Below are positions 14,788 through 55,407 of a stretch of 64,000 nt of DNA, piece after piece. Source of the stretch: Escherichia coli (lineage in GTDB: Bacteria; Pseudomonadota; Gammaproteobacteria; Enterobacterales; Enterobacteriaceae); NCBI RefSeq assembly GCF_036507355.1, contig NZ_AP027877.1. One strand, given 5' to 3'. Position numbers and translations under genes: made by a program. The notes under the pieces are model-generated. The model saw nothing but the letters and a program-made list of their open reading frames with translations, searched no databases and had not been told where the DNA came from. How positions within the stretch are numbered: the first letter of the stretch is position 1; each line of letters starts with the position of its first letter.

Positions 14788-14872
<85 letters not shown>

Positions 14873-14906
14873 CCTCAAGCATTACCTCAAAATTTGAATT
14901 ACCCCT

Positions 14907-14991
<85 letters not shown>

Positions 14992-15350
14992 TCACTTTTC
15001 AAAAGTCCCTGAACTCTCAAACGAATCCGTAATTAAATATTCTGCCCAAGCGGGGAAGGATGAGAAGCTTCGACCAAGGTTCGACTTGAGCGCCAGCGAG
15101 AGAGCGTTGCCGCAGGCAACGACCCGAAGGGCGAAGCGCGCAGCGCTGAGTAATCCTTCCCCCACCACCATCATTTTCAAAAGTCCCTGAACTCTCAAGC
15201 GAATCCGCAATTAAATATTCTGCCCATGCGGGGAAGGATGAGAAGCTTCGACCAAGGTTCGACTCGAGCGCCAGCGAGAGAGCGTTGCCGCAGGCAACGA
15301 CCCGAAGGGCGAAGCGCGCAGCGCTGAGTAATCCTTCCCCCACCACCATC
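14992..15350 (+). repeat. rtT: rtT tandem repeats of the tyrT operon (two ~178-bp units, each ending with a tRNA 3'-end-like AATCCTTCCCCCACCACCATC)
   Basis: Two near-identical units; period 178 bp measured between the tRNA-3'-like motifs ending at 15172 and 15350. Confidence 0.85.
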
Positions 15351-30086: not shown

Positions 30087-31187
30087 ATGTCAAATGCTCA
30101 AGAGGCGGTAAAAACCCGCCACAAGGAGACTTCGCTTATTTTCCCGGTTCTGGCGCTGGTAGTGCTGTTCCTGTGGGGAAGCAGCCAGACACTACCAGTG
30201 GTCATTGCCATCAATCTTCTTGCGCTTATTGGTATTTTAAGTAGCGCCTTTAGTGTTGTCCGTCATGCGGACGTATTAGCCCATCGCCTGGGAGAACCTT
30301 ACGGTTCGCTTATTCTTAGCCTTTCAGTGGTTATTCTTGAAGTTAGTTTGATTTCAGCTTTAATGGCAACTGGCGACGCCGCGCCAACGCTAATGCGTGA
30401 TACGCTCTATTCGATCATTATGATTGTTACCGGTGGGCTGGTCGGCTTTTCATTATTGTTGGGCGGTCGTAAGTTTGCCACCCAATATATGAATCTGTTT
30501 GGTATTAAGCAGTATTTAATTGCGCTGTTCCCCCTGGCGATAATCGTACTGGTATTTCCAATGGCTCTGCCTGCGGCGAATTTTTCAACCGGTCAGGCGT
30601 TACTGGTAGCATTAATTTCTGCGGCAATGTATGGCGTATTTTTGCTGATCCAGACCAAAACGCATCAAAGTTTGTTTGTCTACGAGCACGAAGATGACAG
30701 TGATGACGACGACCCGCACCACGGTAAACCGTCTGCCCATAGCAGCCTGTGGCATGCTATCTGGTTGATTATCCACCTGATTGCCGTTATTGCAGTCACC
30801 AAAATGAACGCCAGCCCGCTGGAGACTTTGCTCGACAGCATGAATGCCCCTGTCGCCTTTACTGGCTTCCTGGTGGCACTGTTGATTCTGTCGCCGGAAG
30901 GTTTAGGTGCATTAAAAGCAGTGTTGAACAACCAGGTCCAGCGCGCGATGAATCTGTTCTTTGGTTCAGTGTTAGCAACAATTTCGCTTACCGTACCTGT
31001 CGTCACGCTAATTGCCTTTATGACGGGTAACGAATTGCAGTTTGCACTTGGTGCGCCAGAAATGGTGGTGATGGTGGCCTCTTTAGTGCTGTGCCATATC
31101 TCCTTCTCCACCGGACGTACTAACGTGCTCAATGGCGCAGCGCATCTGGCACTGTTTGCCGCCTATTTGATGACGATATTTGCCTGA
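30087..31187 (+). CDS. chaA: Na+/K+:H+ antiporter ChaA (CaCA family)
   Basis: Start at internal ATG 30087 (MSNAQEAVKTRHKETSLIFPVLALVV...); track ORF 5' extension rejected. Confidence 0.9.
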   Translation: MSNAQEAVKTRHKETSLIFPVLALVVLFLWGSSQTLPVVIAINLLALIGILSSAFSVVRHADVLAHRLGEPYGSLILSLSVVILEVSLISALMATGDAAPTLMRDTLYSIIMIVTGGLVGFSLLLGGRKFATQYMNLFGIKQYLIALFPLAIIVLVFPMALPAANFSTGQALLVALISAAMYGVFLLIQTKTHQSLFVYEHEDDSDDDDPHHGKPSAHSSLWHAIWLIIHLIAVIAVTKMNASPLETLLDSMNAPVAFTGFLVALLILSPEGLGALKAVLNNQVQRAMNLFFGSVLATISLTVPVVTLIAFMTGNELQFALGAPEMVVMVASLVLCHISFSTGRTNVLNGAAHLALFAAYLMTIFA

Positions 31188-31436
31188 CAGTTATATCTCC
31201 TCCGATGACGGAAATCGGGGGAGATAATATAAATTCCTGCTTATTGTATTTCTTCATACTACCTGGACAGGTCGTTAATCAGAATTGCGAGCCTGTACCA
31301 CAACCTGCACGAAACCACTGCAACAGCTGTTGAAAAGCCGGAATGTACTCTTCATTGCAAACATTTCAGGGATGAAGTGAAGATGAATTGAGACGTAGTA
31401 TCCACACCAAGCCGGCGTTATCCGGTGAGGCGCAAT

Positions 31437-31539
31437 GTTGCGGGGGCTTTATCCCTGGTGGCATTGGTTGCTGGAAAGAGAAAACCCCCGCACGTTGAGA
31501 GGTAAAACCTGACAACAGAACGGGGGCTAATCTTGAACC
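31437..31539 (-). ncRNA. rdl: Rdl antisense RNA (type I antitoxin), copy 1; coordinates approximate
   Basis: Minus-strand sequence ...GATTAGCCCCCGTTCTGTTGTCAGG...CGTGCGGGGGTTTTCTCTTTCCAGCAACCAATGCCACCAGGGATAAAGCCCCCGC matches remembered Rdl RNA, complementary to the ldr 5' leader. Ends not determined. Confidence 0.4.
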
Positions 31540-31592
31540 ATCAACAATTCAAGAATAGCCGCAAAATGTTGTCATTACAACAAGGCGGCTAT

Positions 31593-31700
31593 ATGACGCT
31601 CGCGCAGTTTGCCATGATTTTCTGGCACGACCTGGCAGCACCGATCCTGGCGGGAATTATTACCGCAGCGATTGTCGGCTGGTGGCGTAACCGGAAGTAA
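31593..31700 (+). CDS. ldr: Small toxic membrane peptide Ldr (35 aa), type I toxin, copy 1
   Basis: ATG 31593 to TAA 31700 encodes MTLAQFAMIFWHDLAAPILAGIITAAIVGWWRNRK; followed by hairpin terminator gggccgcagg...cctgcggccc plus T-run (31749-31781). Confidence 0.85.
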   Translation: MTLAQFAMIFWHDLAAPILAGIITAAIVGWWRNRK

Positions 31701-31841
31701 GGCGAAAACGGGCGTCAGGCTGCCGTGATGGCAATATGCGCCCGAAACGGGCCGCAGGGGTAACAGCCTGCGGCCCTTTTTGTCTTTATCTCTTCCACAA
31801 GTAAATATTGGCAACCCGAGCTGGAAGCATCATTCAGAGCA

Positions 31842-32043
31842 CTCATGAAACGACTGTAACAGCTGTTGAAAAACCGGAATGCACTCTTCATTGCAAACAT
31901 TTCAGGGATGAAGTGAAGATGAATTGAGTCGTAGTATCCACACCAAGCCGGCGTTATCCGGTGAGGCGCAATGTTGCGGGGGCTTTATCCCTGGTGGCAT
32001 TGGTTGCTGGAAAGAGAAAACCCCCGCACGTTGAGAGGTACAA
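31842..32043 (+). repeat. LDR unit 2, 5' half (ldr promoter/leader and rdl region), truncated by IS insertion
   Basis: Near-identical to 31297-31500 up to ...cacgttgagaggta, where the IS3-family left end begins. Confidence 0.8.
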
Positions 32044-32061
32044 TGAATCGCCACGGATAAT

Positions 32062-32874
32062 CTAGACACTTCCGAGCCGTTGATAATACTGGTTTTCATA
32101 TTCTGTCGGTGACATCTGATCGCTGGAACCATGCCGACGCTTACTGTTATAAAACATTTCGATGTAATCAAAAATATCGCTGCGGGCTTCTTCCCGCGTT
32201 CCGTAGATCTTTTTCTTTATCCGTTCGCGTTTCAACAACTGGAAAAAGCTTTCTGCAACCGCATTATCATGGCAGTTACCGCGACGGCTCATGCTGCCAT
32301 CCAGGCCGTGTGATTTCAGGAACGACTGCCACTCATGGCTTGTGTACTGACTGCCCTGATCCGAATGAACCAGCACCTGTTTTTGGGGATTACGGCGCCA
32401 TACAGCCATCAGCAGTGCGTTCAGGACAATGTCCTTTGTCATCCGGGATTGCATGGACCAGCCGATAATTTTGCGTGAGAACAGATCAACAACCACGGCA
32501 AGATACAGCCAGCCTTCGTGGGTCCTGATGTAGGTTATGTCCGTTACCCAACGCTTATCCGGAGCATCCGGATTGAACTGTCGCTGGAGCCTGTTGGGCG
32601 ACACGATACTGGCCTCGCCTTTACGTGCCCGCGGGCTCCGGTATCCGACCTGAGCCTTTATCCCGACACGTTTCATCAGTCGCCAGACTCTGTTCACTCC
32701 GCACTGTTGCCCGCTGTCCCGCAGATCCAGATGGATTTTGCGATAACCATAGACGCATCCCGATTCCAGCCAGAACTGTTTAATCTGCCCTGTCAGCCTC
32801 AGGTCTGCCTGATGGCGTTGTGAATGCGGCTGCTGAAGCCAGGCGTAAAAACCACTGGGATGAACATCCAGCAC
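32062..32874 (-). CDS. IS3-family transposase OrfB (DDE integrase domain), expressed by -1 frameshift from OrfA
   Basis: Contains WVTDITY...HSDQGSQYTS...GNCHDNAVAESFF DDE catalytic region typical of IS3-family OrfB. Confidence 0.8.
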   Translation of the reverse strand: MLDVHPSGFYAWLQQPHSQRHQADLRLTGQIKQFWLESGCVYGYRKIHLDLRDSGQQCGVNRVWRLMKRVGIKAQVGYRSPRARKGEASIVSPNRLQRQFNPDAPDKRWVTDITYIRTHEGWLYLAVVVDLFSRKIIGWSMQSRMTKDIVLNALLMAVWRRNPQKQVLVHSDQGSQYTSHEWQSFLKSHGLDGSMSRRGNCHDNAVAESFFQLLKRERIKKKIYGTREEARSDIFDYIEMFYNSKRRHGSSDQMSPTEYENQYYQRLGSV

Positions 32875-32930
32875 CCGACAGAGCAGGCGAACAGGCCAGC
32901 AACAGGTGTTGTCACGGATAAAGGCGTACC

Positions 32931-33215
32931 TCAGTCGGACAGCTTTGCGAAGTACGCCGCGGCTTTTTTTAATATGTCCCGTTCGTCGGTAACCCGCTTC
33001 AGCTCTTTCTGGAGACGGCGGATCTCGGCCTGAGCATCTGACTGTTCTTTATTAGCGGAAGAATCCGGACCGTACTTCTTTATCCAGGCGTAAAGGCTGT
33101 GGGTGGTGATATCGAGACGTGTTGCAACGCTGGCAACAGAATAACCGCGATCAACAACCTGTTTGACTGCTTCAATTTTAAACTCTTCGGGATAACGCTT
33201 ACCGCTCATGGGCAC
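32931..33215 (-). CDS. IS3-family transposase OrfA (HTH, leucine zipper)
   Basis: 94-aa ORF MPMSGKRYPEEFKIEAVKQVVDRGYSVASVATRLDITTHSLYAWIKKYG...RDILKKAAAYFAKLSD. Confidence 0.8.
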   Translation of the reverse strand: MPMSGKRYPEEFKIEAVKQVVDRGYSVASVATRLDITTHSLYAWIKKYGPDSSANKEQSDAQAEIRRLQKELKRVTDERDILKKAAAYFAKLSD

Positions 33216-33272
33216 CTCTCTTTAAGCCATCTTAAATGACTCTGAGGTGTCTGTTAAACCCGTGGCGATTCA

Positions 33273-33550
33273 ACCTGACAACAGAACGGGGGCTAATCTT
33301 GAACCAGAACAATTCAAGAATAGCCGCAAAATGTTGTCATTACAACAAGGCGGCTATATGACGCTCGCGCAGTTTGCCATGACTTTCTGGCACGACCTGG
33401 CAGCACCGATCCTGGCGGGGATTATTACCGCAGCGATTGTCGGCTGGTGGCGTAACCGGAAGTAAGGTGAAAACGGGCGTCAGGCTGCCGTGATGGCAAT
33501 ATGCGCCCGAAACCGGCCGCAGGGGTAACAGCCTGCGGCCTTTTTTGTAT
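33273..33550 (+). repeat. LDR unit 2, 3' half carrying second ldr ORF
   Basis: Near-identical to 31501-31790; resumes right after the IS right end. Confidence 0.8.
33358..33465 (+). CDS. ldr: Ldr toxin peptide copy 2 (35 aa; Ile9Thr variant), separated from its leader by the IS
   Basis: Encodes MTLAQFAMTFWHDLAAPILAGIITAAIVGWWRNRK; terminator hairpin at about 33517-33549. Confidence 0.8.
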   Translation: MTLAQFAMTFWHDLAAPILAGIITAAIVGWWRNRK

Positions 33551-33612: not shown

Positions 33613-34476
<864 letters not shown>

Positions 34477-46094: not shown

Positions 46095-46126
46095 ATAACG
46101 GTATAATAAATAAACAAGGCCCCGTT

Positions 46127-47320
46127 ATGCTCACTGATACACAATGCCGCACTGCCAAACCGAAAGAAAAACTCTATCGACTCAATGATTTCAACGGTCT
46201 CTACCTCGAAGTGAAACCCAATGGTAAAAAGGCTTGGCGTTATCGGTTTAAGCTCAACGGTAAATCCAGCATGTTTGCGCTAGGTGAGTACCCGACGGTC
46301 AAGCTTGCCGAGGCTCGAGAAAAATGCGAGCAAGCGCGAAAGCAGGTTGCGGAAGGAGTCAACCCAGCGCAAGCTCGTCAGTTAGATAAGATTCGTAAGG
46401 TTAACGACGCATCCAACACCTTTGAGCTGATCGCCAAAGAGTGGCTGCAGATGAAAGACTGGGCCGAAATTACCAAAACACGCCGACTGGATATGCTTGA
46501 ACGTGTGGTTTTCCCCTCAATCGGTAAGCTTCCAGTCAGAGAGATCACCCCACACCATATCCTTAAAATTCTTCAGGAAACTGCCAAACGAGGAGCACCG
46601 ACAGTTGCCGCAGAAGCCCGTCGCACCATTTCATCAGTTTTCGAGTTGGCTGTGGCAACGCTTAGAGCTGATAGCGATCCTGTCTGGCCTGTACGCAAGG
46701 CACTTCCGGCGAATAAGACACAGCACAAACAGGCATTGAATCCACAGCAAATCGGGAAGCTATTAAGCTGTTTTGATAACAGTCGCGGCTCATATCAGGT
46801 TAACTATTGCATGTGGCTAATGTGGTGGACGCTGGCGCGACCAGCCGAAGTCACCGAGGCAGAGTGGGCAGAGTTCGATCTTGGTAACGCACTGTGGACC
46901 ATTCCGGCAAGGCGTATGAAAGCTCGTAGGGAACATGTTATTCCCCTTCCTTCCCAAGCCGTCAACATGCTCAAAACACTACAAGGATTAACCGGGCATA
47001 GGCAGCATCTTTTTCCGGGCAGGGATAATCCGCTAGGCCCAATGACATCGCACTCTCTGCGTCAACTACTTAAAAGCCTCGGATGGAATGGCACTTATAG
47101 CCCCCATGCTACCAGAACTACAGGAAGTACGCGTTTAAACGAAATGGGCTATCGACCTGATGCTATTGAGGCCCAACTTGCGCACGCTGATACCAACAAT
47201 GTTCGTCGCACATACAACCATGCAACTTATCTTGATGAGCGAAAGGTTATGATGCAAGACTGGGCAGATAAACTTGAAGGATGGGTAGGAAGCACACACA
47301 GCAATATTGATGTTTCGTAA
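46127..47320 (+). CDS. int: P4-type tyrosine integrase (island integrase)
   Basis: 397-aa ORF with the N-terminal arm-binding-like region typical of P4-family integrases and a C-terminal catalytic region ...HSLRQLLKSLGWNGTYSPHATRTTGSTRLNEMGYRPDAIEAQLAHADTNNVRRTYNHATY (R..H..R..Y). Confidence 0.85.
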   Translation: MLTDTQCRTAKPKEKLYRLNDFNGLYLEVKPNGKKAWRYRFKLNGKSSMFALGEYPTVKLAEAREKCEQARKQVAEGVNPAQARQLDKIRKVNDASNTFELIAKEWLQMKDWAEITKTRRLDMLERVVFPSIGKLPVREITPHHILKILQETAKRGAPTVAAEARRTISSVFELAVATLRADSDPVWPVRKALPANKTQHKQALNPQQIGKLLSCFDNSRGSYQVNYCMWLMWWTLARPAEVTEAEWAEFDLGNALWTIPARRMKARREHVIPLPSQAVNMLKTLQGLTGHRQHLFPGRDNPLGPMTSHSLRQLLKSLGWNGTYSPHATRTTGSTRLNEMGYRPDAIEAQLAHADTNNVRRTYNHATYLDERKVMMQDWADKLEGWVGSTHSNIDVS

Positions 47321-47719
47321 GTCATGATACATTGGTGTGTTCATACTGATTATTAAAGATTATTTTCCACCACAATATAAAAACCACGCTTTAGCCTATA
47401 TATTAGTAACCATCTGATTTAACTAATAATGTTTGCTATACTGATCCTGCATTATACTCCCTCTGTTTTTCCATCCCTCTAATAACATAGGACATATCCA
47501 TGCGCTGATATCATGTATCCAGCAGTGAAGCCAGTATGAGAAAGACTCTGGCGAACGAGTTTTGGCTGATAAGCTGGGGATCGCTAGTTCTGATAAGATG
47601 GATGAAGCTGAACTTGTCCTGTTAGAACAACTCTACCAGTCCGTTTTTGAAGAACAGTTCCCGTAAAGACAGCTCAGCATAGCCATGCTAAAAAGCTGGC
47701 ATCCCCGCAGGGGTGGTAA

Positions 47720-49888
<2,169 letters not shown>

Positions 49889-49949
49889 CTAAGCATCACA
49901 GTGGCAGGTCGACAGGGACAAACCTGTGAGTCTGCAGGCTCGACGTTGT

Positions 49950-50290
49950 GACAGAAACAATCGCATCACACATCAACACCACAGCTTCCCGCTTCTGGTC
50001 TGTCGTCAATACTTTCGCCCAAGAACCACCTGAAGCGCCTGAAGCGCCTCCTTATCCGGCATGGCTTCAGCAAGCAGCTTCTTTGAGTCTGGCGTTCTCT
50101 TCCTCAAGCGACTCCAGGTGCTTAACCTCAAGCACCGCCATACTTCTTATGCTATGTGTAAAGAGTGGCATCGGAAATAGCGTGCTTGCAGCAGAGCTCA
50201 CGGGCAGAAACTCCAGCTTCTGCTTCACGGAGAACGCTGATTATCTGTTCGTCGGAAAAACGCTTCTTCATGGGAATCATATTCGGCGTC
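49950..50290 (-). pseudogene. IS3-family OrfA remnant (truncated, internal stop)
   Basis: Minus-strand translation from 50279 gives MIPMKKRFSDEQIISVLREAEAGVSARELCCKHAISDATLYT then a stop, with ...LKSLEEENARLKKLLAEAM... continuing out of frame; no cognate OrfB follows. Confidence 0.55.
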
Positions 50291-50450
50291 AGGGTCAATA
50301 TAAAGGCATTACTAGCATCGGGATGTACTAATCAACGGAGAGCAAGATCACATCCCTAACAGTATGACCAGATAAGCTATTCATAGTAAAAAAATATATC
50401 CACTAACCATCTAGAAGATAAGTCATGATTTTCACGGTAATGACTCCAAC

Positions 50451-50954
50451 TTATTGATAGTGTTTTATGTTCAGATAATGCCCGATGACTTTGTCATGCA
50501 GCTCCACCGATTTTGAGAACGACAGCGACTTCCGTCCCAGCCGTGCCAGGTGCTGCCTCAGATTCAGGTTATGCCGCTCAATTCGCTGCGTATATCGCTT
50601 GCTGATTACGTGCAGCTTTCCCTTCAGGCGGGATTCATACAGCGGCCAGCCATCCGTCATCCATATCACCACGTCAAAGGGTGACAGCAGGCTCATAAGA
50701 CGCCCCAGCGTCGCCATAGTGCGTTCACCGAATACGTGCGCAACAACCGTCTTCCGGAGCCTGTCATACGCGTAAAACAGCCAGCGCTGGCGCGATTTAG
50801 CCCCGACGTATCCCCACTGTTCGTCCATTTCCGCGCAGACGATGACGTCACTGCCCGGCTGTATGCGCGAGGTTACCGACTGCGGCCTGAGTTTTTTAAA
50901 TGGCGGAAAATCGTGTTGAGGCCAACGCCAATAATGCGTGCACTGGCGCGACAT
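50451..50954 (-). CDS. insB: IS1 transposase InsB (produced as InsAB fusion by frameshift)
   Basis: 167-aa [53 protein letters not shown]... Confidence 0.9.
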
Positions 50955-51148
50955 CCGACGCCATTCATGGCCATATCAATGATTTTCTGGTGCGTACCGG
51001 GTTGAGAAGCGGTGTAAGTGAACTGCAGTTGCCATGTTTTACGGCAGTGAGAGCAGAGATAGCGCTGATGTCCGGCAGTGCTTTTGCCGTTACGCACCAC
51101 CCCGTCAGTAGCTGAACAGGTGGGACAGCTGATAGAAACAGAAGCCAC
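50873..51148 (-). CDS. insA: IS1 protein InsA
   Basis: 91-aa [46 protein letters not shown]... Confidence 0.9.
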
Positions 51149-51504
51149 TGGAGCACCTCAAAAACACCATCATACACTAAATCAGTAAGTTGGCAGCATC
51201 ACCTAAGTCTTGAGCCATTATTTCTATAAAATACATGTTAAATCATATTAGAATAGTTTATACGATAATTCGCTTGAAGAAGAAAAACACTATTCTAATT
51301 CAAACATTTTATATTATCAAGAACCATGGTAATTACAGTTAATTTACAGTATCAGTGATGTGGTTTCCAAAAAAGTATGCCCAAACATTTAAATATATGC
51401 CTTCGATAAATGAACTTTAACTCATCAGAATGACTACCCATCAATACTATTGAGTATATGAAGACAATTCACAGTCCCATCTGGCGAATTTTTCAGATGG
51501 CGAG

Positions 51505-54500
51505 TTAAATATCTTCTGGTGATTCCCCCAGATACATCTTACGGTAATGATACACTTCAAAGAATTTCCCCTTGTCTTTGTAACTACTGATAAAGTAGCA
51601 ATGTGTTAAATACTTTAGCAGGATCTCATTACCTTCAGTTTTGTGAACTTTTGCTCGTTTGGTTTTATCCGCAATCAAATTATATTCTTCCGACACGAAG
51701 GCCATAAGCGCACGATTGATGTATTCAAAAGGCAGTTCTTCACACTCTAAAAGATGATTCAAAAACACAAGTCGAGTGTCATCTTCCGAAACATTAAGAA
51801 GGAGTGCTATACTGACTTTACTATTTAGGCTTATATGGTCGAAGAAACTATTGGTATAGTGCGGCCAGAGAACATTGATGATTGAAACTTTAGTCGTCAA
51901 CTCTATATCGTCATCATTGAGCACAAGCTCAATAAGTTCATTATCGAAATCTTCGTCATCTTGCAGATAAAACTCAATATTATTTTCAAAAACAGCAAGG
52001 TTGTTTCTAATCATAAGCGACAGACACTCATTGAGGCCCTTGCGACGTTGTCCCTCATAAATGCTGAGTACGTCTTCATAGAGCGCTTCTGACAGCAAAA
52101 CTCTGTTGCTCTCACAAAGTGCTTTAAATTTTGTCAGTGGCAGGTCACTGATTACCTTGTCGATACTTACAGGCAGCACGCTGATCAACTGTGCATATAA
52201 CGCGTCTGGCTTATCCGCTGCTGAAATGATGTGATTCACAACATTATCAATAGACTCCTCAGGAACACTGACCTTATGGCCTGAAAGCACCTCTGGATGG
52301 TGAGCAAAAAACGCCCACAATATCTCATCGTCGACATCGGTATACATGTAGTTAAATATGTTATCCCAGTTGGCAGCGACACGCCCATGTTTAAACAAGA
52401 GGTCATAAACAGTGAATGACGCACCCTCAACTACCGATAGCCTGATATTTTCAACTGTCGACAACTGCTGAACTTCAAAATCCATGTTTTCAATTATAAT
52501 TTCTTTGGAACGCTCAGTAGCGTCTGAATTAATTAGTGAAATAACGGATCCAACGCTTTCCTCAGAATGAATGAAATATTCCACAATAAACATCTCAAGG
52601 TTTGTATTTACAGCCTCAATTAAGCATGGGACTTTTTCACTCATAATTAAGGTATATGGATTGCGCGATAGTTCCTCAACATTCTTTCTGTTATTAGAGT
52701 ACGCATTAAACAGTGCAGTGAGGTTATTAATATTAAATACATACAGAAAATTCTCTGCGATAAACTTCACCAACGTACGTTCACTTTCATCGTTAGCTTC
52801 ATTGACGCTATCGAATACAATATTGAGCTCTTTTAATTTTATGCTGAATGACGCAATCTCATCGGGTCGTATGTATGTAAACAACGTAGTGTCTGTTTTT
52901 AATTCATGCAGATAATCCTGAACAGCACTTTGTCGGGTAATGTTTTCTATCAGACCAAAACGAAGTAATGACACAAATAACTGCTGATAAAAATCATCAT
53001 CAGAGTCAATGTCACGGTAAGTACTCATCGCCGCCATCAATTTACCCAATGTCTTTTCATCGCTTAAAATTAAATTAATTAAGTCATGATAGTCATCATT
53101 ACTAAATTCATAAAAATACGTCCGCATAGTGCGAATGATTAAGCCATGTGAGCAATAATTAAATAAATGAATAAAAACATCACGGGCAAAACCAGCTCGG
53201 CAGTTGATCAAAAAGCTAATTATATGCGGATGAAAAATCCCCTCGTAATATTTAAATGATAGCGACTCCATTTTATCTACAACATTGGAAACGTTATTCA
53301 GATGAATATCTTTTAACTCCTCAAAATTCACCTTAGCAGCGACCTTCTGGATATAAACATTATCTGATTTACTTAATGCACCTGCATGGAAGATAGAGCG
53401 ATATTGCATGTAATCCTGCTCAATATATCCATTTGACAACATGAAAAACAACAATTCCATATTGAAATTAATCGCTGAAGGCTTGGATGCATTTTTATTT
53501 CCCTTATCGTCAGTTGATGCAACATTAAGCAACCACTCACTCAATTTCGCTAAGGTTATTTTTTCACATAATTCATGAAGTGATAGGCCATTTCGTTGAT
53601 TAAGAACACGCTGTGTGTTTAAAATATTTTTAGATAATTGCTCAACGGTTTTTTGGTTCTTATCTAAAATAACTGGTGAGCGTTTGTTATATTCACGTAA
53701 ACTCTCAGCTCGCTTATTATGTGGAATTTGGAAGGTATCTTGATATTCATACCCGTTTCTTGAATATGTGATAGCTATTCCGGATGGAAGCTCTCTGTTC
53801 AGAAAATCACAAAACAATGATTCATCCCCACAAAGTTCAACAAAGCTCCAGCTACTCCCAACTTGCCCATACTTATTATGGCTTATATAAAACACTGTAT
53901 TCGATTCAATTTGTTCAGGAAGATAACGCCTTAGAATTTCAACCCTCAGATTTAAACTGGATGTTTGCAATTCCTTTTGTACTTTCACCAACTTTTCTTT
54001 CTGCTGAGAAATCTTTATTTCCAAATCTTTAAAATACACGTCATGTAGCGTTCTCTTAGAGTAAGCATTAACTATTCTGTATAAAAAACCATCCTGATTA
54101 TCAAGCAGAGTGAAATCTTTGGTACATAAATTTTTATACATTATCAAAGAAAATAACTTCACATCAGAAATCTCACCCGTAATTAATTTTTTAAAAATAT
54201 TAAATTCATTTATAACATTATTCATCACCCGCATATCAGTCAGGTAAAGGGATACTTTCTTGAAAAACTGCTCTTTATCTACCGAATTAAAGTTTATAAC
54301 TTTACTACTTAATATGTCATACGCATTCTCACTATCTACTGCAGGTATAATCGGCACAATAAAATCAAAAAATTTTGTTTGTGATTCAGCATCCTTTAAT
54401 AAATCCTCCCTGACTGCAAAAATAAATTTAATCGGTTTCTTTTCCAATAGTCTGGAATTGTTTATCACTTGATTTATTTCACGGAGCTTAATAAAAATAT

Positions 54501-55407
54501 GACCATTGTTTAAACGGTCTAAATCTTCAAATACGACAACTCTATACTTTGTTTTAAGGAAGAAGTAAACAATCTCATCAATATACAAATTTAGCAGAGA
54601 AGCTGTATTCTGTTTTTCCGCCGCAATTTCTGCCTTTAAGAGATTTACTTTATCAAGAGCAATTTTTCTGTCAAAAAATCCTATCCGATAAAAACGAGAC
54701 AGCAGATACCAACAAATGATAAATGATAGCGAACCGATACATCCCCAACGCCATACCGGATGTATCGCAATGAAATGACTCACCGCTGACGGTAATGAAA
54801 ACGTGTTGATAATTTTTTGAGGAAACAACAATGTAGTGACAACGATTGTCAGTATGAGAACAAAAAACAGCAAACAGGATGTTATTAGTATTTGCCCAAC
54901 ACTTCGGGTGTGAATGCGCTCTACCCGCGAATCTGGCAGCGTACCTTTATCCACTTTGTATAAAATCTGCTGTAATATGCTGTATTCAATGCTTTGTTCT
55001 TTTGATAAAGACTCGGAACTTTTTAGTGTCTCATCCGTTTCAAAGTTTGCCAGTGAGATAATCACGTGCTCATCCGCTGGTTTTAAACTTGTAAACCTGA
55101 GCCAATATTTCAGGCGGTGCCACAACCGCTTTCGCCCTTCAATTTTTTTAAGGTATGAGAGAATAACCGAGCTTTTACCCGCGCCATAGGACCCCGTGAT
55201 GGCGATGTTCTTCACATCATCCCGGCTGAGGGCATAATCCAACGCCTTAAAATAGGGTTGATATCCCTCTTTATCAGGATCGACAATCGGTGTTAGCGTT
55301 TGGAATTCCCTTTCCGTTCCTGAATTGTTTTCTGAAGTAACCTGAAGCCTTGCGACTGTTTTATGCAACCAGTCTGCGATCGTTTTCAACCCGAAAGACA
55401 GCGCCAT
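51505..55407 (-). CDS. Large (1300 aa) KAP/YobI-like P-loop NTPase with transmembrane hairpin inserted between Walker A and Walker B; long C-terminal region of unknown function. Candidate defence/conflict protein
   Basis: Walker A ITGSYGAGKSSV (about aa 70-81), two hydrophobic helices (about aa 171-195 ILITSCLLFFVLILTIVVTTLLF and 215-236 HPVWRWGCIGSLSFIICWYLL), Walker B-like VVVFEDLDR (about aa 290-298); Lys/Asn/Ile/Phe-rich composition; gene is conspicuously AT-rich versus flanks. Confidence 0.75.
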   Translation of the reverse strand: MALSFGLKTIADWLHKTVARLQVTSENNSGTEREFQTLTPIVDPDKEGYQPYFKALDYALSRDDVKNIAITGSYGAGKSSVILSYLKKIEGRKRLWHRLKYWLRFTSLKPADEHVIISLANFETDETLKSSESLSKEQSIEYSILQQILYKVDKGTLPDSRVERIHTRSVGQILITSCLLFFVLILTIVVTTLLFPQKIINTFSLPSAVSHFIAIHPVWRWGCIGSLSFIICWYLLSRFYRIGFFDRKIALDKVNLLKAEIAAEKQNTASLLNLYIDEIVYFFLKTKYRVVVFEDLDRLNNGHIFIKLREINQVINNSRLLEKKPIKFIFAVREDLLKDAESQTKFFDFIVPIIPAVDSENAYDILSSKVINFNSVDKEQFFKKVSLYLTDMRVMNNVINEFNIFKKLITGEISDVKLFSLIMYKNLCTKDFTLLDNQDGFLYRIVNAYSKRTLHDVYFKDLEIKISQQKEKLVKVQKELQTSSLNLRVEILRRYLPEQIESNTVFYISHNKYGQVGSSWSFVELCGDESLFCDFLNRELPSGIAITYSRNGYEYQDTFQIPHNKRAESLREYNKRSPVILDKNQKTVEQLSKNILNTQRVLNQRNGLSLHELCEKITLAKLSEWLLNVASTDDKGNKNASKPSAINFNMELLFFMLSNGYIEQDYMQYRSIFHAGALSKSDNVYIQKVAAKVNFEELKDIHLNNVSNVVDKMESLSFKYYEGIFHPHIISFLINCRAGFARDVFIHLFNYCSHGLIIRTMRTYFYEFSNDDYHDLINLILSDEKTLGKLMAAMSTYRDIDSDDDFYQQLFVSLLRFGLIENITRQSAVQDYLHELKTDTTLFTYIRPDEIASFSIKLKELNIVFDSVNEANDESERTLVKFIAENFLYVFNINNLTALFNAYSNNRKNVEELSRNPYTLIMSEKVPCLIEAVNTNLEMFIVEYFIHSEESVGSVISLINSDATERSKEIIIENMDFEVQQLSTVENIRLSVVEGASFTVYDLLFKHGRVAANWDNIFNYMYTDVDDEILWAFFAHHPEVLSGHKVSVPEESIDNVVNHIISAADKPDALYAQLISVLPVSIDKVISDLPLTKFKALCESNRVLLSEALYEDVLSIYEGQRRKGLNECLSLMIRNNLAVFENNIEFYLQDDEDFDNELIELVLNDDDIELTTKVSIINVLWPHYTNSFFDHISLNSKVSIALLLNVSEDDTRLVFLNHLLECEELPFEYINRALMAFVSEEYNLIADKTKRAKVHKTEGNEILLKYLTHCYFISSYKDKGKFFEVYHYRKMYLGESPEDI

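Follow-up and report, generated by a model that had tools for sequence, protein, structure and literature searches.

The E. coli K-12 loci LDR-A, LDR-B and LDR-C and the separate LDR-D are ldr/rdl type I toxin–antitoxin systems (Kawano et al. 2002; summaries in PMC4147584 and PMC8167048), in which Rdl is placed over the 5′ UTR of ldr and not over the ribosome-binding site (PMC4147584; PMC8167048). Toxicity of Ldr and its neutralisation by Rdl are taken here from the literature only, where they are described for LdrD/RdlD (PMC4147584). Loss of such modules also has precedent, as chromosomal copies of hok/sok are described as degenerated and non-functional in some strains (PMC2887945).

We analysed a 64,000-nucleotide window of E. 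coli (contig NZ_AP027877.1), in which the chaA-kdsA interval of the chromosome contains two LDR (ldr/rdl type I toxin–antitoxin) units in tandem, the second of them interrupted by an insertion sequence (IS). The locus resembles the K-12 LDRs in its position at chaA-kdsA and in its tandem units of ~535 bp. It also has in common with them a 35-aa Ldr (PF13940), an Rdl of ~66 nt that is antisense to the 5′ UTR, a −10 box with its start, and a terminator. It differs in that two units are present where K-12 has three at chaA-kdsA, two being the common state in E. coli, and in that unit 2 bears an IS splitting both rdl and the leader. Our overall explanation, which we regard as probable, is that a recent IS insertion split rdl2 and left module 2 functionally dead or nearly so. 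The event is real but ordinary.

The two LDR units and the split antitoxin gene

The tandem repeat at chaA-kdsA has a period of 536 bp, a long direct repeat of ~530 bp. Unit 1 (31240–31783, + strand; direct-repeat families D1–D3) is colinear with the units of S43, APEC O78 and K-12 LDR-D, and is a standard member of the K-12-type LDR family. Unit 2 lies in two parts on the same strand, the left at 31776–32043 (repeat D1 at offset 536; alignments A1 and A2) and the right at 33273–33548 (repeats D2 and D3; alignment A1; terminator scan). Between the units, 31240–31507 and 31776–32043 match at 85% overall and are near-identical from ~31313, a 35-nt stretch (31506–31540 vs. 33272–33306) matches at 100%, and 31543–31783 and 33308–33548 match at 98%, whilst 31866–32043 in unit 2 has 100% identity to LDR units of other E. 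coli. The left part of unit 2 carries the ldr2 promoter (−10 at 31932–31937), from which transcription is inferred to start at 31945, together with the initial 99 nt of leader; the right part carries the last 85 nt of the leader, the ldr2 open-reading frame and the terminator (33515–33540).

In unit 1, the ldr1 −10 box TAGTAT (31396–31401, +) precedes an inferred transcription start at 31409, transferred through alignment A2 from that of K-12 ldrD (3700272, in an entry of the PMC7967276 supplement). The predicted ldr1 mRNA (31409–31783) is 375 nt long and ends after an intrinsic terminator hairpin at 31749–31776 (+), which has a 10-bp stem with nine G-C pairs and a T-run. The ldr1 open-reading frame (31593–31700, +) encodes 35 aa with isoleucine at residue 9, a peptide identical to those of S43 unit 1 and APEC O78 unit 2. 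When ldrX was sought in the list of open-reading frames, the sole frame from the Rdl-complementary stretch to the ldr AUG was an in-frame TTG frame at 31533–31700. The ldr2 open-reading frame (33358–33465, +) is also intact, as an earlier note on this DNA had stated, and its 35-aa product matches Pfam Ldr_toxin PF13940 in full (91.5 bits, residues 1–35 of 35). Ldr2 has threonine at residue 9 and is identical to the peptides of S43 unit 2, APEC O78 unit 1 and ET881 unit 2; each of the two Ldr peptides also has identical RefSeq counterparts in other E. coli. The Ile9Thr difference reported in the earlier note is therefore real, but it is not a mutation that followed the insertion, as the T9 peptide occurs in the uninterrupted units of those three strains. 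By this comparison, T9 is an ordinary natural LdrB-type Ldr allele.

The intact antitoxin RNA gene of unit 1, rdl1 (31479–31544, −), matches the Rfam rdlD model (RF01813, gathering score 50) with 83.6 bits over model positions 1–66 of 66 and folds at −27.3 kcal/mol (z = −4.9). The K-12 rdlD annotation maps to 31481–31545 through alignment A2 and its position relative to ldr agrees, so that unit 1 has a cis-encoded Rdl stem-loop of ~66 nt opposite the ldr 5′ UTR. These matches, with the repeat alignment and the Pfam result, bear out the earlier identification of two long direct repeat units of ldr/rdl type with the first intact. In unit 2 no RF01813 match was found, either at the gathering score or even at E ≤ 1. 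The uninterrupted units of ET881 (three) and S43 (two), CAA loop variants included, all score 86–92 bits as rdlD. A separate Rfam match to ‘sok’ on the ldr leader was dismissed as noise (27 bits vs. a gathering score of 59).

The IS lies at approximately model position 38–40 of the 66 in rdl, within the apical loop of the stem-loop, which agrees with the claim that it sits inside rdl and disrupts the second copy. It cuts rdl2 into a truncated 38-nt 5′ piece (33273–33310, −; the K-12 rdlD 5′ end via alignment A2) and an orphaned 3′ piece of ~29 nt (32015–32043, −; equivalent to 31479–31507 in unit 1), which retains the 3′ half of the terminator stem and the U-tail, and the Rdl terminator hairpin is thus split. 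The rdl2 promoter is intact to the right of 33273–33310, in a region which agrees with natural alleles, and its transcript has 38 nt of rdl sequence left before it enters the left inverted repeat (IRL) of the IS.

The inserted IS3-family element

The IS is 1,229 bp long (32044–33272, −), delimited by inverted repeat I1 with its ends taken from alignment to many independent E. coli copies. Its 38-nt terminal inverted repeats, IRR at 32044–32081 and IRL at 33235–33272, are 74% complementary, and the termini are of the form 5′-TG...CA-3′ (TGAATCGCC...GGCGATTCA). The transposase region (32062–33209, −) consists of orfA (33209–32931, 92 aa) and, through a −1 frameshift at A_AAA_AAG (32963–32969), an uninterrupted 382-aa OrfAB fusion. 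The reconstructed OrfAB matches NCBIfam NF033516 with 437 bits (cut-off 160) over profile positions 1–369 of 369 and is an IS3-type DDE transposase. Assignment to the IS3 family at about 1.23 kb, made earlier from the letters of the sequence, is therefore upheld. A promoter-like site directed inwards, TTAACA-17-TAAGAT, is found in IRL (33229–33257, −), as a consensus match of 9/12 only.

Copies of the same 1,229 bp are present in four other E. coli genomes (Res13-Sevr-PER07-33, G4/9, EC77 and 06-00048; WP_089518920.1), where RefSeq labels them ‘IS3 family transposase, programmed frameshift’. The copy here matches these at 1228/1229 bases and agrees with them in its inverted repeats, in the arrangement of orfA and orfB and in the A_AAA_AAG site; it differs in one conservative D/E substitution, the single base difference, and in having no 3-bp target duplication. 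Rfam RF00383, the IS1222-type frameshift element, had no match in 32044–33272 at E ≤ 1, and this result together with the 3-bp duplications at other copies rules out an IS407/IS1222-group identity. RF00383 does match a different IS remnant elsewhere in the window, at 49921–50039.

Predicted expression of the second module and of the transposase

The insertion falls 99 nt downstream of the ldr2 start transferred from K-12, which places it in the ldr 5′ leader as previously described. The open-reading frame had also been described as far from its native promoter; this stands insofar as 1,229 bp now separate the promoter and the initial 99 nt of leader from everything that follows, but the leader has been split and not removed, the other 85 nt staying with the open-reading frame beyond the IS. 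Whether the toxin is silenced or driven from the IS had been left as a question in the earlier note. The sequence evidence leans to silencing, and the most likely outcome would be a second module which is silenced and backed up in trans by the Rdl of unit 1.

From the far side of the IS, the native ldr2 promoter is still aimed at the ldr2 open-reading frame, in the orientation opposite to the transposase gene, and its transcripts would reach that frame only after 1.2 kb of untranslated sequence antisense to this gene. An untranslated stretch of this length is a typical substrate for Rho-dependent termination. The full-length ldr mRNA folds with z = −7.35, and this predicted fold has the 3′ UTR paired to both the ribosome-binding site and the AUG; a leader-truncated ldr2 RNA is predicted to keep the same pairing. 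We considered whether truncation of the leader would free the ribosome-binding site, and rejected this as a predicted effect, as the full-length and truncated folds pair alike. Any residual ldr2 mRNA would keep 33–35 nt of perfect complementarity to unit-1 Rdl, which suggests that this Rdl can act in trans on ldr2.

There is some limited room for ldr2 to be expressed still from its own promoter, by read-through from 31945 in an RNA of ~1.6 kb ending at the ldr2 terminator, with the toxin held only by unit-1 Rdl in trans and the RNA damping the transposase by antisense pairing. The ldr2 promoter is directed at ldr2 and is 100% conserved together with its −10 box and the initial 99 nt, the + strand of the IS contains a single weak 5-bp terminator-like hairpin (32945–32962), and 33–35 nt of the remaining leader exactly match the rdl region of unit 1; however, such an RNA would be exposed to Rho over its untranslated 1.2 kb, and the predicted fold still hides its ldr2 ribosome-binding site and AUG.

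The end of the IS adjoining ldr2 is IRL, and therefore the surviving rdl2 promoter and the transposase gene have the same orientation, with the promoter reading into the gene. This raises the unlikely alternative that the main effect is on the IS and not the toxin, with a constitutive, terminator-less rdl2 promoter raising transposase expression of this copy. The geometry would allow it, since the 5′ end of rdl2 (~33310), the beginning of the IS (33272) and the start of orfA (33209) all follow one another on the minus strand and the IS interrupts the Rdl terminator hairpin. In the predicted fold of the read-in RNA (33272→33190; −24.4 kcal/mol, z = −2.6), however, CACCUC from IRL pairs with the orfA Shine-Dalgarno sequence GAGGUG, whilst in an RNA starting at the IS's own promoter the Shine-Dalgarno sequence is predicted to be left open. 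Read-in from the rdl2 promoter would thus yield a transposase mRNA with a masked orfA ribosome-binding site, and masking of this kind is a classic protection against impinging transcription.

Outward promoters are recognised in several IS families, and one here, or a hybrid one formed at the IS end, would produce a leader-truncated ldr2 mRNA and a de-repressed copy of the toxin; we consider this very unlikely. At the junction a TTCAAC hexamer does arise where unit 1 has TAAAAC, and GCTAAT follows it at 17 nt, but as a −10 this GCTAAT is missing the conserved A of its second position. A standard consensus scan found no site of at least 9/12 on the strand facing ldr2, and a lenient scan of the + strand inside the IS gave only 7/12 sites, including 33114–33142 and 33151–33179, although the scan is a weak instrument, which gives even the genuine ldr promoter no more than 7/12. 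The strain is moreover viable despite an intact toxin open-reading frame, the 3′ UTR of the truncated RNA is predicted to remain paired with its ribosome-binding site and AUG, and unit-1 Rdl still matches the remaining leader. We give equally little credence to a rewiring of both partners, in which convergent rdl2 and ldr2 promoters flanking the IS would put the transposase under toxin–antitoxin promoters (sense read-in vs. antisense read-through) and a leader-truncated ldr2 would be wholly dependent on unit-1 Rdl; were it true, unit 1 would become ‘addictive’ and could stabilise the array.

Target site, age and distribution of the insertion

The IS is flanked by GAGAGGTACAA on the left and ACCTGACAAC on the right, and the empty site GGTACAACCTG is present in strains S43 and ET881, so that the CAA at the left junction belongs to the LDR unit. 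The earlier placement of the IS between two halves of unit 2 which are continuous in unit 1 was accordingly correct, except that its left junction was 3 bp off. The other copies of this IS have target duplications (TCC/TCC, AGA/AGA and AGC/AGC), whereas here the flanking triplets are CAA and ACC; no 3-bp target duplication is present at this site (GGTACAA-IS-ACCTG), where comparison with GGTACAACCTG shows duplication of a single bp (A). The missing duplication bears on the history of this IS copy and not on its IS3-family membership, and as the canonical 3 bp are missing this history may exceed one simple transposition step. The unduplicated flanks would fit an arrangement that is not a simple insertion, produced by recombination of two IS copies or by an assembly artefact joining unrelated flanks, but this is most improbable, as both flanks are adjacent in the empty site of S43 and ET881 and overlap by exactly 1 bp, the pattern of an insertion in place, and the junction is explicable by loss of one CA from ...TTCA-CAA....

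A probable recent insertion also accords with the distribution of the locus. The two-unit locus without the IS is present in 5,380 of 5,426 complete E. coli genomes, and none of the 5,426 has the interrupted locus at ≥80% coverage; scans for the exact junction found it neither in JGI metagenomes nor in GTDB representatives, and an exact-protein look-up with a 72-aa open-reading frame spanning the right junction returned no match. The insertion appears recent and private to the sequenced strain, because the IS is near-identical to other copies, its transposase is intact and the junction is absent elsewhere. This suggests that a still-active IS3-family element transposed recently, in the strain's own lineage, into the kdsA-proximal LDR unit, where it would have landed in DNA that encodes the Rdl apical loop and, on the other strand, the middle part of the ldr 5′ leader. 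The ldr2 open-reading frame may be intact only because the insertion is young.

As at degenerate or IS-disrupted chromosomal type I loci, of which the degenerated hok/sok copies are an example, this is a mutational inactivation of a chromosomal type I module with paralogues remaining, yet here the toxin open-reading frame is perfect and the lesion is one very recent IS in the antitoxin and leader. The insertion has little significance beyond the sequenced strain. It does offer a clean natural case in which an IS has inactivated one antitoxin RNA gene of a multi-copy type I array whilst the toxin open-reading frame of that copy stays perfect, and the strain could be a ready-made background for asking whether the Rdl of one LDR unit can control the ldr of another in trans, and whether the initial 99 nt of ldr leader have a role. 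Annotations should not treat the ldr2 coding sequence as belonging to an intact module.

An IS3-family element in the second of two LDR units

Between chaA (plus strand, ending at 31187) and kdsA (minus strand, 33613-34467) this E. coli chromosome carries two tandem LDR units with a period of 536 bp. In a repeat search, 31240-31507 recurred at 31776-32043, 31506-31540 at 33272-33306 (100% identity) and 31543-31783 at 33308-33548 (98% identity), therefore unit 2 is broken between 32043 and 33273. The earlier note had placed an IS within the second of two LDR repeats and this holds, the repeat match being broken by 1,229 bp; the split unit is real and far beyond chance. LDR unit number at this locus (31240-33548) is itself variable: this chromosome and most E. 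coli have two units, K-12 and strain ET881 three. On the kdsA side ET881 is the closest relative, 33600-56000 aligning to it without a break at 99.7%. Whole genomes contain 1-12 LDR pieces (median 4).

The 1,229 bp element bears 38-nt terminal inverted repeats (TGAATCGCC...GGCGATTCA; IRR 32044-32081, IRL 33235-33272), and its ends can be fixed at 32044 and 33272, the exact limits to which independent copies from other E. coli align. Within it, on the minus strand, lie orfA (92 aa) and a longer orfB, which a -1 slip at A_AAA_AAG (32963-32969) joins into an uninterrupted 382 aa OrfAB matching the full profile of NCBIfam NF033516 'IS3 family transposase' at 437 bits (cut-off 160). In every feature that defines the family this is an IS3-family element. 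An IS1222- or IS407-like identity was rejected, the Rfam IS1222 frameshift element having no match in the IS. Compared with copies from four unrelated E. coli (1228/1229 identity) it has one changed base, 32299, whose effect is a conservative Asp/Glu exchange that leaves the catalytic motif untouched.

Unit 1 is an ldr/rdl module by every feature that could be assessed. Rfam rdlD (RF01813) matches it in full length at 31479-31544 on the minus strand (83.6 bits, gathering score 50), the sole match across the 64-kb window; unit 2 lacks an intact Rdl, returning no rdlD match even at E ≤ 1, and each uninterrupted unit of ET881 and strain S43 scores 86-92 bits. Both toxin frames are open on the plus strand (ldr1 31593-31700, ldr2 33358-33465; 35 aa each), Pfam PF13940 covers the entire Ldr peptide (91.5 bits) and RefSeq labels homologous ORFs 'type I toxin-antitoxin system toxin Ldr family protein'. 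The Ile9Thr difference described between the two copies is present, but it is not a change caused by the insertion, as the identical Thr9 peptide occurs in uninterrupted units of S43, APEC O78 and ET881.

Insertion point, junctions and distribution

The K-12 ldrD transcription start (3700272; PMC7967276 supplement) was transferred to the window by aligning LDR-D, giving starts at 31945 for ldr2 and at 31409 for ldr1, the latter with a TAGTAT -10 box 8 nt upstream. The IS therefore lies 99 nt into the 184-nt ldr leader, and 85 nt of leader (33273-33357) are still joined to the ldr2 ORF. In Rdl coordinates it sits about 38 nt from the 5' end, in the apical loop of the stem-loop that doubles as terminator, so that Rdl does span the insertion point, as had been claimed; what is left of rdl2 is a 38-nt 5' fragment (33310->33273) and a 3' fragment of about 29 nt (32043->32015). 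On its own the 3' half of the terminator region can still form a small 6-bp hairpin with a U-run behind it (minus strand, 31484-31503 and 32020-32039); the one at 32020-32039, just outside IRR, might act as a terminator for transcription running out of the IS. Published reviews have Rdl overlapping the 5' UTR of ldr and not its ribosome-binding site, and on the model of hok/mok/sok a leader ORF, ldrX, has been proposed to mediate its action (PMC4147584; PMC8167048). An open frame in frame with ldr (31533-31700, plus strand) begins with TTG 31533, within the sequence complementary to Rdl, and in unit 2 the same frame is open into the IS (33247-33465, plus strand, GTG 33247); this upstream ORF may be related to the proposed ldrX.

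Other copies of the same IS have 3-bp target duplications (TCC, AGA, AGC). The sequence across this copy is GGTACAA|IS|ACCTG and the uninterrupted site of the matching S43 and ET881 units is GGTACAACCTG; at 32040-32043/33273-33277 the 3-bp duplication is absent, just 1 bp (A) being duplicated relative to the empty site. The expected junction, ...TTCA-CAA-CCTG, is two bases longer than that observed, and most simply the CA-CA repeat there would have lost one CA. The absent duplication bears on the history of this copy, not on the IS family; beside an artefact, the alternative is a rearrangement between two distant IS copies, which is unlikely given that both flanks are contiguous in uninterrupted units.

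An IS-free two-unit chaA-kdsA locus was found in 5,380 of 5,426 complete E. coli genomes, and the interrupted arrangement in none (0 places with ≥80% coverage). The 30-nt right junction had no match in JGI metagenome records or GTDB species representatives, nor had the 72-aa junction-spanning ORF in an exact look-up. These negative results and the 1228/1229 match of the IS to other copies indicate that the insertion is recent and confined to this strain.

Predicted expression of the split unit

We consider module 2 likely to be a newly formed pseudo-module, in which the insertion has destroyed the antitoxin gene rdl2, the ldr2 toxin would be largely silenced and any leakage would be covered by the intact unit 1. 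The best-surviving rival is expression of ldr2 by read-through across the IS. The ldr2 promoter still faces ldr2, but its transcripts would have to run through the whole IS on the strand antisense to the transposase, and the plus strand of the IS holds one weak terminator-like hairpin (32945-32962); Rho-dependent termination of the predicted long untranslated RNA is plausible. For full-length ldr1 mRNA (31409-31783, plus strand) folding predicts an unusually high degree of structure (-172 kcal/mol, z = -7.35), with ribosome-binding site and AUG paired with the 3' UTR and a 5'-GGCGC paired with a 3' partner, a fold resembling hok fold-back inhibition. The leader-truncated ldr2 RNA retains the pairing of ribosome-binding site and AUG in its predicted fold, thus truncation alone is not predicted to activate translation, and unit-1 Rdl could pair with residual ldr2 mRNA, in whose remaining leader 35 nt of Rdl-complementary sequence are 100% identical to unit 1. 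Rfam 'sok' matches 31442-31595 below threshold (27 bits, gathering score 59).

A promoter within the IS might instead drive ldr2. A standard scan found no site of standard quality facing ldr2 within the IS and a lenient scan reached 7/12 matches at best, a weak negative because the authentic ldr promoter likewise scores 7/12.

The remaining rival is that the insertion site boosts transposase expression. As the transposase is on the minus strand, IRL abuts the ldr2 side; the rdl2 promoter is intact, identical to natural alleles, and with its terminator lost would read in sense into IRL and orfA. In RNA entering from outside (33190-33272, minus strand), CACCUC of IRL is predicted to pair with the orfA Shine-Dalgarno GAGGUG (-24.4 kcal/mol, z = -2.6), and in RNA from the promoter-like site of the IS itself (33257-33229, minus strand, within IRL) the Shine-Dalgarno stays unpaired. 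The IS seems in this way to protect itself from read-in, such masking being the usual defence against impinging transcription, and the rdl2 promoter is therefore not expected to boost transposition much.

Significance and other features of the window

The LDR family and the IS3-family element, the latter common in E. coli, are both known entities, near-identical to database sequences. For an IS to disrupt one chromosomal toxin-antitoxin copy is nothing out of the ordinary, and degenerate chromosomal type I loci are on record (PMC2887945); the specific allele appears unreported in the collections searched, yet is no new kind of system. Its sole real use is as a natural background for asking whether LDR units control one another in trans and what the 5' part of the ldr leader does.

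Elsewhere, two tRNA genes followed by two RtT repeats (Rfam RF00391, 134-138 bits) at 14788-15348 (plus strand) mark the tyrT-tyrV/rttR region. Downstream of ychF, at ~46100-55400 (approximate coordinates transferred from the ET881 annotation), lies an island common to ET881 with an integrase, a frameshifted IS100 (IS21 family), an IS1, a 1,300-aa P-loop NTPase and an IS3-type remnant, the last carrying an IS1222 frameshift element (Rfam match 49921-50039, minus strand).
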